A DNA stretch of 64,000 bases from Podarcis gaigeae (Eukaryota): the NCBI GenBank assembly GCA_964106915.2, contig OZ066920.1, one strand, 5' to 3'. This document shows, one piece after another, positions 32,835-35,378 of the stretch (position 1 is its first letter; the number at the start of each line of letters is the position of its first letter). The notes under the pieces are model-generated. The model searched no databases, was not told the origin of the DNA, and worked only from the letters and a program-made list of their open reading frames with translations. A program made the translations under genes and the position numbers.

Positions 32835-35378
32835 TACTCCCCCTAAAGTATCAATGCGTGCTGCGAGCAAAGCGTCATCCAGAGAAGAAAACAAACAGTT
32901 GTTATATGTATAACACTCCCCTGTTGTTTCAGTTCCACCCTTGGAACTACCCGCCACTGGTTTCACCAATGTACCTCTCTGGTTGTGTGACTTCCAAGGA
33001 ATGAGTGCATCTGCATTACCTTGGTTAGCAACTCTCTGTTGTGCCTTTGTCTCAGACACAGCTTCAATCTGTCCTTGGTCGTTTACAACAGCAACACATG
33101 CAATAGCTTGGTTGGCAAACTCCTTTGAATACCTCTTGGGTGGTACACCCTTCGTTGCTCTCTCAGACCTACGTAAGAGGTGCTGCTCTTCTCTGCTTTC
33201 TGGTTCAGCCTCTGAAACCTCTTGAGAACCAGTACTAAGCTTAATCAGTGGTTCATCCTCCTCTTCTGAGGGTCTAGTCATTATGTGAGATTTCCTCTCA
33301 ATGACTGTGACAACTGAGCTGTCTGAGCTATCGCTGTCATCATCAGTACTACTGAATTCAATAAAATCAACATCATCATCATCAGAATCATCATCATGTC
33401 CTGTGGGAAATGTGTGAACAATCACTCTCTCCTGTTCAGGAGCACTCTCTAGGAATTTTGTGAGAATCACCTGACCAGATTCAGACAAAATTACTCTGTA
33501 GAGACCCTTTTCATAACCCACAAAAATGCCTCTGGCATTCTTTACTCCACCTGGAGCTTCTGTCCTCACATGAGACCCAAAAACCTTGAAATGGGCAACA
33601 GAAGGTTTTCTGTGGAACAGTTTCTCAAAAGGAGAACTTCCCAACTCTTTTGAAAACTTTCTCAACCACGTATAACAAAATGACATTAGCGACTCAGCCC
33701 AGTACTCATGTGGCAGATGTGAACTAAGCAATTGCGCTTCCATTCCCTTTTGCAATTCTTTGTTCACCCTAATACAGACACAACTGTTCCAAGCTTCTTC
33801 GGAACTAGCAATTTTGTGTCTTATCCCTTTCTTCTTCAGGAACCTCTGGAAATCCTGTAAGAGAAAAATTGGCTTCTCATCTGTGCAAAGACAATTTATG
33901 TCAGCATCATGCATATTTTTAACCTTGTCACAAAACTCTTTAAACCTTTCTAAGGCTTCTTTCGGTCTCTCCAAAAGATAAATCCAGACAAAACCTGTGA
34001 AAGAATCAACACATATTAGGTAATACTTTGCACTGCCTCTAGATGGTGCTAAAGGACCAATTACATCAGCATACACCCGCTGAAATGCCTTGTCAACCCT
34101 CGAGGTGACCTGCTTGGCGTTCTTCTTGGCTACACCTGCAAAAGAGATCATGTTAGAATCACAAGAATTACATTTCATGTAATCACTTTGATCAAAAGTC
34201 AACAAATACAGTCCATCTTTCTCTTTGGCAGAAAGATACAACTCTCCATCTTTGTAGATCTCACAGTTCTGATCATCATAGGACAGTTTTAGTCCCTTCT
34301 TGGCAATCTGCGAAACGCTGAGCAGATTGTACTTCAACTCTGGAACCAAATAAACATTGTTTATTGTCAAGTTCAGACTTTTAAGATACACAGTCCCAAT
34401 TCCGGTGGCTTCCAGCTCTTGACCGTTGGCCTGTTGTACAACGAAGCTTTGCTTCTTAAACAACGAAAATAGATCCCTACGATGGGTCATGTGAACCGTC
34501 GCTCCCGTGTCTAAAACAAAAGAATTCCCCACTTCTGGTGTGGCTTTTAGGGACATCAAAGCCTTTGCAGGCTTCGCCTGTGACTTGACATGACCTCTGC
34601 CTGACGCCTCAGACTTCGTGGAGCTTCCTTTGGCTCCTTTGTTCTGACGTGGCTTCTTGCAGTTCCGCTGAAGATGCCCAGTCTGTCCACAATTGTAGCA
34701 TCGGACAACGTTCAAAGCTACGGCGTCTCCTCCAGTAGCTACAGCAGTGGGGGTGTCAGAACTCCGTTCTTGTCTCCCCCTGACCTTTACTTCCAGGGCG
34801 GCAAGTCTGTCATGTTCACAAAGAACCATGGCAAAGACCCTGTCCAACGTTAGATCTTGCGCTGGGAGGGACCCCAGCTGACTGGCAACCGTTTTGTAAG
34901 TCCGATTCAGACTGTTGATCACCATGAAGCAAAACACTTCCTCCTGCAGACGGAAATTGCGTTCCACTATCTGTTGACGCAGAAATTTCATTTCCGTCAG
35001 GTGCGCTTGAACATCTCCATCAGGCGCAAGCCTCAGGTTGGTCAGCTTCTCAAAATACAGCAACGCTGAAGAACCTGCATCTCTCTGATGTGTCCTTCTC
35101 AGCGTCTCCCAAACATCTTTCGCGTGCTGTAAATCTTGTATATGAATAAGCTGAGAGTCTGACACACACAGAATTATAGCCGTTCTGGCCTTCACATCCT
35201 GTGACTCCCAAGCACGCGTTGGTGCTGCAGGGATGGGGTTCTCAATCACCCCAAACAGTCTCTGATTCTGTAGCAAGGCCTTCATCTTAATAGACCAAGA
35301 TGCATAATTGTCACTGGTCAGGAGGGATGGAGAAGGCAGGCCTCCCCCCTTCTTGGCATCCATTTTGAGTCCTTGCAT
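32751..35378 (-). CDS. Copia-type Gag-protease-(inactive) integrase polyprotein, 875 aa
   Basis: Gag N-terminus LTSDNYASWSIKMKALL and ARTAIILCVSD...AKDVWETL; knuckle CYNCGQTGHLQRNC (34659-34700); protease FVLDTGATVHM (DTG at 34503-34511); integrase core VYADVIGP...TD...; C-terminal GIFVGY and RRSER...PKRY. There are no RT (YVDD) or RNase H motifs. Confidence 0.92.
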   Translation of the reverse strand: MQGLKMDAKKGGGLPSPSLLTSDNYASWSIKMKALLQNQRLFGVIENPIPAAPTRAWESQDVKARTAIILCVSDSQLIHIQDLQHAKDVWETLRRTHQRDAGSSALLYFEKLTNLRLAPDGDVQAHLTEMKFLRQQIVERNFRLQEEVFCFMVINSLNRTYKTVASQLGSLPAQDLTLDRVFAMVLCEHDRLAALEVKVRGRQERSSDTPTAVATGGDAVALNVVRCYNCGQTGHLQRNCKKPRQNKGAKGSSTKSEASGRGHVKSQAKPAKALMSLKATPEVGNSFVLDTGATVHMTHRRDLFSLFKKQSFVVQQANGQELEATGIGTVYLKSLNLTINNVYLVPELKYNLLSVSQIAKKGLKLSYDDQNCEIYKDGELYLSAKEKDGLYLLTFDQSDYMKCNSCDSNMISFAGVAKKNAKQVTSRVDKAFQRVYADVIGPLAPSRGSAKYYLICVDSFTGFVWIYLLERPKEALERFKEFCDKVKNMHDADINCLCTDEKPIFLLQDFQRFLKKKGIRHKIASSEEAWNSCVCIRVNKELQKGMEAQLLSSHLPHEYWAESLMSFCYTWLRKFSKELGSSPFEKLFHRKPSVAHFKVFGSHVRTEAPGGVKNARGIFVGYEKGLYRVILSESGQVILTKFLESAPEQERVIVHTFPTGHDDDSDDDDVDFIEFSSTDDDSDSSDSSVVTVIERKSHIMTRPSEEEDEPLIKLSTGSQEVSEAEPESREEQHLLRRSERATKGVPPKRYSKEFANQAIACVAVVNDQGQIEAVSETKAQQRVANQGNADALIPWKSHNQRGTLVKPVAGSSKGGTETTGECYTYNNCLFSSLDDALLAARIDTLGGVCYSKAAMLQQAKALAAQSAACGWKGCL
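32835..32844 (-). other. Polypurine tract
   Basis: Minus strand AGGGGGAGTA immediately precedes TGTT of the 3' LTR, the typical Copia PPT. Confidence 0.85.

Follow-up and report, generated by a model that had tools for sequence, protein, structure and literature searches.

Our analysis has shown that a young family of Ty1/Copia-type long terminal repeat (LTR) retrotransposons in the lizard Podarcis gaigeae carries an integrase that is very probably a selected pseudo-enzyme. The family was studied from one copy on the minus strand of a 64,000-nucleotide stretch of contig OZ066920.1 (assembly GCA_964106915.2), referred to here as the window; the positions of its features are collected in Table 1. 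The single open reading frame (ORF) of the element encodes Gag, protease and an integrase whose catalytic glutamate has been replaced, and it lacks reverse transcriptase (RT). We tentatively propose that the dead integrase may act in cis as a non-catalytic partner of a helper's integrase or Pol, bringing RT and a working integrase from the helper into the particles that the element itself forms.

A first-pass annotation of the window had described an integrase fold with its catalysis erased, and the positions behind that description hold. The three triad codons (GAT, GAT and ATT) are in frame, with the Ile 36 codons after the second Asp. Alignment with the Ty1 integrase by phmmer (7z0h_W, E 2.5e-08) pairs CVCIRVN with GVAERLN and confirms that the Ile occupies the position of the catalytic Glu. 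The structural motifs named in the annotation are all present in the ORF. Set beside an active Asp-Asp-Glu (DDE) integrase, the protein has the RNase H-like core fold and the SH3 domain, and lacks both the D,D(35)E triad and the His-His-Cys-Cys (HHCC) motif. Its Pfam match to rve is weak (21.9 bits against a cut-off of 32.6).

A DNA search of the genome returned at least 397 first-look candidates; the 40 that were scored showed 97-100% identity. Our survey took in 80 main-subfamily copies and 22 from older subfamilies (82-89% nucleotide identity over the integrase), 102 together; they were picked by similarity to family members and are a sample, not a census. The catalytic position is Val in 78 of the 80 main-subfamily copies (GTT in 77, GTG in one) and Ile in only two, the window copy and L147, while among the 22 older-subfamily copies 21 have Val (GTG in 17, GTA in four) and one has Met. 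Val is written by three synonymous codons across the sample, Glu occurs in 0/80 and 0/22 copies, and no sibling copy has a normal DDE triad. Both Asp residues are kept in 80/80 and 22/22 copies. Two decayed members, L248 and L249 (54-59% amino acid identity), also have Val, and L248 is without the first Asp. In contigs from public runs, the Val-type first base was present at full depth in four of four runs from four organisms. The Ile is incidental, but the loss of Glu is old and fixed. As to whether Glu-to-Ile is fixed across copies and species, a check named in the first-pass annotation, the missing Glu is fixed but the Ile is nearly private; Val is the family state. An accompanying argument from three nucleotide changes fails, since the older subfamilies use GTG or GTA, one substitution from a Glu codon. 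Chance or the decay of a single copy was considered and rejected with the 80-copy survey.

Selection was estimated as omega with a maximum-likelihood (ML) codon model in IQ-TREE on 41 of the 102 copies; 34 had failed a filter on stops, gaps or identity, and 27 more were dropped as near-duplicates. Omega was 0.26 for Gag, 0.24 for protease, 0.31 for the integrase core (p 1e-27 against 1), 0.21 for SH3, 0.52 for the linker and 0.47 for the tail, all with p below 1e-8, and these values are likely upper bounds because they include neutral post-insertion changes. Variants shared between copies (80 copies, unweighted counts) gave 0.24 for the core (N45:S46), 0.12 for SH3, 0.24 for Gag and 0.16 for protease, with no shared stop. 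Private variants were near neutral (0.89 in Gag, 0.98 in SH3). Comparison of the window copy with L188 and L189 placed the omega of the core at 0.25-0.41 by three methods. This purifying selection on core and SH3 bears out the earlier suggestion that a non-catalytic integrase scaffold has been kept. The zinc-binding domain is another matter. As annotated, its histidine half is gone: compared with the autonomous family F1 described below, a block of about 45-55 residues with HxxFGH is missing, and MKCNSC aligns with the CxxC half. The CxxC itself, however, is unconstrained; the N-terminal remnant shows no detectable constraint (ML omega 0.75, p 0.18; shared-variant omega 0.63, not significant), and CxxC is absent from the older subfamilies and from the related proteins P0006 and P0007.

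The closest proteins to the window ORF come from Podarcis (72-82% identity). Val occupies the Glu position in P0002, P0003, P0006 and P0007; three proteins with Val are from Podarcis lilfordi. P0007, from Zootoca vivipara (869 amino acids, 42% identity), has the same layout, the same His-His deletion and the triad Gly/Asn/Val; the deletion is common to all Podarcis and Zootoca relatives that cover the region. When the P. gaigeae genome was searched with the Zootoca protein, only matches of 42-45% were obtained, all from the dead-integrase clade, and a database search with it gave no further dead-integrase relatives. In trees, the dead-integrase proteins, including that of Zootoca, form one clade (100/99) nested in a clade with F1 and a second family, F2 (100/100). 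The stem branch of the dead-integrase clade is 0.83 for integrase against 0.33 for Gag-protease; for F1 and F2 the integrase stems are 0.23 and 0.17 and the Gag-protease stems 0.86 and 0.75. Constraint on the integrase fell from the level of an enzyme to roughly that of Gag and has persisted since. The window and Zootoca proteins share 46-47% identity over core and SH3 and 41-47% over Gag and protease, and in diverged subfamilies 62-63 of 65 SH3 residues are identical. Several clade members in the database bear host-gene names (P0007 is annotated as FAM168A; P0002 and P0009 are also affected, names including vomeronasal receptor, with a V2R domain fused on in P0009); these are probably gene-model artefacts.

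The first-pass annotation held the loss to be specific to catalysis, and this was not borne out. Also lost are the D2 turn, the catalytic loop and a number of residues that are elsewhere invariant. Among columns conserved in at least 80% of 98 canonical Copia integrases, the window and Zootoca proteins have both lost K412, H438, K474, G504, E506, P531, Q533, N534, G535, E538, R549, N574 and R643, and have both kept G443, P444, Y454, D460, G520, W562, E564, P585, F602, G603, G623 and R630. The catalytic loop of the family matches that of F1 at 2/10 positions and helix 4 at 5/20, compared with 8/10 and 14/20 between F1 and F2. The corresponding values are 10/20 and 11/20 for helix 5 and 10/19 and 13/19 for helix 1. 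Helix 4 carries new clade-specific sequence that is common to the window and Zootoca proteins (13/20 identical). An AlphaFold (AF2) model of core and SH3, built on an alignment rich in canonical integrases, has a mean pLDDT (per-residue confidence) of 87.5, with most of the N-terminal remnant below 50. Foldseek matched it to the integrases of prototype foamy virus (PFV) and Rous sarcoma virus (E 6e-14), the best matches being PFV chains, and the Atlas model of the Zootoca protein has a TM score of 0.88-0.90 to rve plus SH3 clusters.

The family has moved recently. Our script located both ends of 51 of the 80 copies (29 were not located), and 40 of these 51 have a perfect 5-bp target-site duplication. 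LTR pairs diverge by a median of 0.4%, with 8 of 50 pairs identical (family F3a); the median for F1 is 0.0%. A Pfam scan found no RVT_2 in the element's ORF, so that the RT and RNase H needed downstream of integrase for autonomy are missing. A short remnant of RNase H, in frame and close to where the ORF ends, marks an internal deletion of RT and RNase H; its score was reached by one of 500 shuffles for the window copy, and likewise for L188, and was not significant for the Zootoca protein. Because the insertions are young and of integrase type, and the element has no RT and a dead integrase, established Copia biology implies that helper enzymes are required. With intact, selected Gag and protease, no RT and recent mobility, the family has the features of a semi-autonomous gag donor.

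To identify possible helpers, the genome was searched for RVT_2, giving at least 2,157 candidates, of which 150 were scored and 20 loci fetched. Among these 20, the closest autonomous family is F1 (L115-L117, 1347 amino acids), at 34% amino acid identity. F1 and our family have TGTT/CCAACA LTR ends in common, and the GGGGGAG polypurine tract of F1 resembles the tract here. Both also favour G/C three bases outside the target-site duplication (35 and 36 of 40 copies here, 15 and 14 of 18 for F1), a comparison that covered these two families only. A capsid-deleted F1 subfamily has lost about 145 amino acids of capsid in frame (L112, L114, L190, L192-L201; e.g. C16:75153300-75160600). Of the 150 scored RVT_2 rows, 46 have frames of 1200-1207 amino acids against 12 of 1345-1347, and 13 of 13 fetched were capsid-deleted. 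The N-terminal remnant of this subfamily drifts (shared variants N12:S1), its RT-RNase H region is constrained (N6:S15), and, abundant and young as it is, it would have to borrow capsid. Different gag deletions were seen in L191 and L119. F2 (L170-L183, e.g. C8:101950400-101958400) is 4.3 kb long and RT-less, with LTRs TGAGG..TGACA and a half-tRNA primer site. Among the copies checked, HHCC is intact in 10 of 10 and the DDE motifs are complete in 8 of 10, and F2 is possibly an intermediate stage or a second helper-dependent lineage.

What, then, would a dead integrase be selected for? Shared variants of dispersed copies spread only by transposition of their carrier, so the selected function most likely acts in cis; such a benefit argues against host domestication and against dominant-negative control. 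The lost loop, HHCC and invariant basic residues argue against catalysis and probably also against recognition of cDNA ends. Core and SH3 are left, the parts that the non-catalytic outer subunits of an intasome require, which favours a role as partner or adaptor. In the PFV intasome these outer subunits are reported not to need the N-terminal domain (PMC6333793), and for the mouse intracisternal A-particle (IAP) element 1-delta-1 a deleted fusion protein is reported to help in cis (PMC6466679, PMC7411935). We therefore favour, as a possibility, that the protein would be made as a Gag-protease-pseudo-integrase fusion that acts on its own encoding RNA, and that the core would bind helper integrase, whether within the precursor or in the integration complex, where it would be a structural outer subunit. 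Among the four roles in the first-pass annotation, partnership with helper integrase fits best and is a candidate; binding of cDNA ends is weakened by the lost loop and the lost invariant K, R and N residues.

Several observations weigh against partnership with a helper integrase. There is no sign of specific co-evolution with F1: helix 5 is conserved equally with unrelated Copia families (11/20 for F1 versus L109), and the Zootoca protein matches F1 at only 6/19 positions of helix 1. The helices that form the dimer interface are presumed ones, assigned after retroviral structures. Integrase evolves faster in the dead-integrase clade than in F1 and F2, as would also be expected if constraint had relaxed to a purely structural kind. 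Toward the 3' end synonymous divergence declines, with very little of it at codons 611-640, so part of the SH3 conservation may come from constraint at the RNA level or from recombination; it is low at codons 371-400 as well. With respect to the helper itself, no LTR similarity to F1 was found by blastn, and DNA similarity to autonomous loci is negligible apart from one 84-bp match. Priming in F1 and F2 uses the anticodon half of tRNA-Met, and our family primes from the 3' end of the same tRNA. Helper pairs in wheat are recognised by features that include a common primer-binding site and LTR sequence in common (PMC9744471, PMC11302176); of these features, F1 and our family share LTR termini and an overlapping period of activity and differ in primer-binding site. 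The correspondence is thus only partial, and F1 is a candidate helper only.

The primer site has switched from the half-tRNA type of F1 and F2 to the 3'-end type in the dead-integrase family. No RT-bearing Copia element with the 3'-end site was found with an exact pattern that excluded the main-subfamily LTR end and would miss a helper with that same end or a mismatched site. The pattern gave nine loci: five are members of the dead-integrase clade, four are without Copia coding similarity, and the only RT belongs to a nested F1 on the opposite strand. The four loci L234-L237 (L243-L246) have the 3'-end tRNA-Met site after an LTR-like CCAACA end and are other non-coding or unrelated LTR elements. 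We take the primer tRNA-Met(CAT) to be the initiator tRNA; the primer-site motif is also present within genomic tRNA-Met genes. Within the family the site is heterogeneous, with 11 variants among 51 copies, the two main ones in 18 and 14.

Another reading, rather less probable than partnership, is that the pseudo-integrase keeps a non-catalytic job of integrase in the particle, binding and condensing the element's RNA at maturation or supporting reverse transcription, with no helper integrase involved. The inactive D116N integrase of HIV-1 is reported to bind viral RNA like the wild type (PMC7671690), SH3 is the most constrained part of our protein, helix 4 carries new conserved sequence, and core plus SH3 is net basic in Podarcis-type proteins (31-34 K+R against 23-26 D+E). 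However, the Zootoca protein is nearly neutral (24 against 22). The same report has RNA binding by HIV integrase require tetramers, with a contribution from the N-terminal domain, which is gone here, and in yeast, Ty1 and Ty3 integrase supplied apart from RT is reported to have failed to rescue reverse transcription (PMC5371799).

It is also unlikely that the integrase has no job of its own and stays folded only lest it poison the Gag-protease polyprotein, or because cis-acting RNA signals overlap it. This would account for a core omega slightly above those of Gag and protease, for the long stem branch as relaxation, for low synonymous divergence at the codons given above, and for kept residues that are mostly structural (G, W, P, Y, F). 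Against it, RT-RNase H and the His-His block were deleted in frame, so deletion of the integrase was available, and yet core and SH3 persist across divergence to 42% identity. They are conserved as well as Gag and protease between the window and Zootoca proteins, and the new surface sequence of helix 4 is conserved too. Very low synonymous divergence was seen in three subfamily comparisons at window positions 33460-33550 and about 34180-34270; the dips suggest a recombination tract or an overlapping RNA signal, such as a cis RNA element or a splice signal.

More doubtful is a split retrotransposon, in which our family would give capsid and protease, capsid-deleted F1 would give RT and active integrase, and the pseudo-integrase would have evolved into a docking subunit, bringing the capsid-less Pol into the particle or taking up outer intasome positions. 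We consider it improbable that the protein travels with the cDNA complex as a module for targeting, tethering or nuclear import. The element does retain SH3 and the basic RRSxRxxKGxPPxR motif, and the C-terminal domains of retroviral integrases are described as tethering to chromatin (PMC6333793), but around the target site the signature is like the one in F1, and insertions are spread over many contigs. Dominant-negative copy-number control, raised in the first-pass annotation, or a host-domesticated restriction factor is very improbable. A dead multimerising subunit could inhibit helper integrase, but the family is young and dispersed (at least 397 candidates, young LTRs, target-site duplications), purifying selection is seen in variants that dispersed copies share and must act through the element's own transposition, and no single conserved host locus was seen. 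Finally, it is hardly credible that the enzyme remains active through a displaced acid in SSEE or NKEL, despite the universal retention of both Asp residues in the sample and a Glu five residues after Val that is invariant in the clade: in the model that Glu would lie over a turn further along helix 4 (residue 146 rather than 141; helix 139-158), SSEE is unconserved (AVSAG, AKTQA), neither the loop nor HHCC survives, and of the Asp residues the Zootoca relative has neither and L248 is without the first.

Table 1. Features of the Copia-type element in the window.
Feature	Position	Strand	Remarks
LTR element, whole	32354-36379	-	4,026 bp, Ty1/Copia type
5' LTR	35891..36379	-	489 bp, TGTT...AACA
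Primer-binding site	35870..35889	-	complementary to tRNA-Met(CAT) 3' end
Sole ORF, 875 amino acids	32751..35378	-	Gag, zinc knuckle, protease, pseudo-integrase, acidic tail, RNase H remnant; no RT
Gag capsid region	34803..35321	-	Pfam DUF4219, Retrotran_gag_2
CCHC zinc knuckle (nucleocapsid)	34653..34703	-	Pfam
Aspartic protease, DTG motif intact	34293..34520	-	Pfam; Asp in 79/80 copies
Integrase N-terminal domain remnant	34100..34195	-	His-His block deleted; CxxC at 34161-34172 left
Pseudo-integrase catalytic core	33624..34091	-	Asp 34065-34067, Asp 33879-33881, Glu position Ile 33771-33773
Integrase SH3-like C-terminal domain	33459..33617	-	Pfam SH3_retrovirus
RRSxRxxKGxPPxR motif, end of acidic tail	33132..33173	-	common to autonomous Copia families
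In-frame RNase H remnant	32886..32933	-	shuffle test
Polypurine tract	32835..32847	-
3' LTR	32354..32834	-	481 bp; 475/481 identical to 5' LTR, plus 8-nt deletion

The family has the features of the Ty1/Copia lineage: TG..CA LTRs, a primer-binding site, a polypurine tract, a 5-bp target-site duplication (in the family) and a Copia-type Gag, protease and integrase, with integrase directly after protease. The Pfam families of that lineage are Retrotran_gag_2, Pol_BBD, rve and SH3_retrovirus. The window copy itself is without a target-site duplication, positions 32349-32353 and 36380-36384 reading AAAAG and GGCAA. The deletion in its 3' LTR shortens the ORF. Lacking the duplication and carrying this deletion, it is possibly a recombinant. 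Elsewhere, a single insertion of an older subfamily recurs in at least 13 near-identical copies on C32 at 24.7-27.4 Mb, where many broken Copia copies also cluster, which suggests segmental amplification on a repeat-rich chromosome. The window also holds two non-LTR retrotransposon copies (6834-9188 and 44796-45941 (-); 91% alike), the first with an open RVT_1 frame of 784 amino acids, and a GC-rich island at 57700-59300 (58% GC) that is likely a host gene promoter.

Several known systems resemble this family in part. It shares with autonomous F1 the order Gag-protease-integrase, TG..CA LTRs, 5-bp target-site duplications, a tRNA-Met primer, 34% amino acid identity and a common clade in two trees. 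Unlike F1, it has no RT (only the RNase H remnant), its HHCC and DDE motifs are broken and its primer site is of the 3'-end rather than the half-tRNA type. The wheat elements RLG_Sabrina_SA and RLG_WHAM with RLG_Wilma, and RLG_Quinta with RLG_Cereba, are likewise described as having intact Gag (plus protease) and no RT, and as cross-mobilised by an autonomous partner (PMC9744471, PMC11302176). In contrast, they are Gypsy elements, reported there as having no integrase coding sequence and the primer-binding site of the partner, whereas the lizard family keeps a selected dead integrase and a site that differs from that of F1. In mouse IAP 1-delta-1, too, an internal in-frame deletion creates a fusion protein that helps in cis, with helper proteins acting in trans; however, it is a young betaretrovirus-like subtype that lost part of gag, and the accessible text describes no long-conserved eroded integrase (PMC6466679, PMC7411935). 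The outer subunits of the PFV intasome offer a structural core with a dispensable N-terminal domain, but there the same wild-type protein is reported to fill both positions (PMC6333793), and a separately encoded outer subunit is our hypothesis here.

The literature searched, which lay outside Repbase, Dfam and subscription journals, showed neither this family nor any LTR element with a selected pseudo-integrase. Gag-donor semi-autonomous elements are already known; what sets this family apart from them is a selected, catalytically eroded integrase kept over deep divergence. Non-autonomous LTR elements described in the texts available drop pol or carry decaying remnants, whereas here the integrase fold is under Gag-like purifying selection, down to 42% identity. 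If the split reading were true, a hetero-oligomeric integrase would have evolved in nature, in an LTR retrotransposon whose functions are segmented. Taken as a natural separation-of-function mutant, the family makes roles of Copia integrase beyond catalysis, and the capture of helper enzymes, testable, and one genome holds the comparison set: autonomous elements, capsid-deleted elements, RT-less elements with an active-type integrase and RT-less elements with a dead one.

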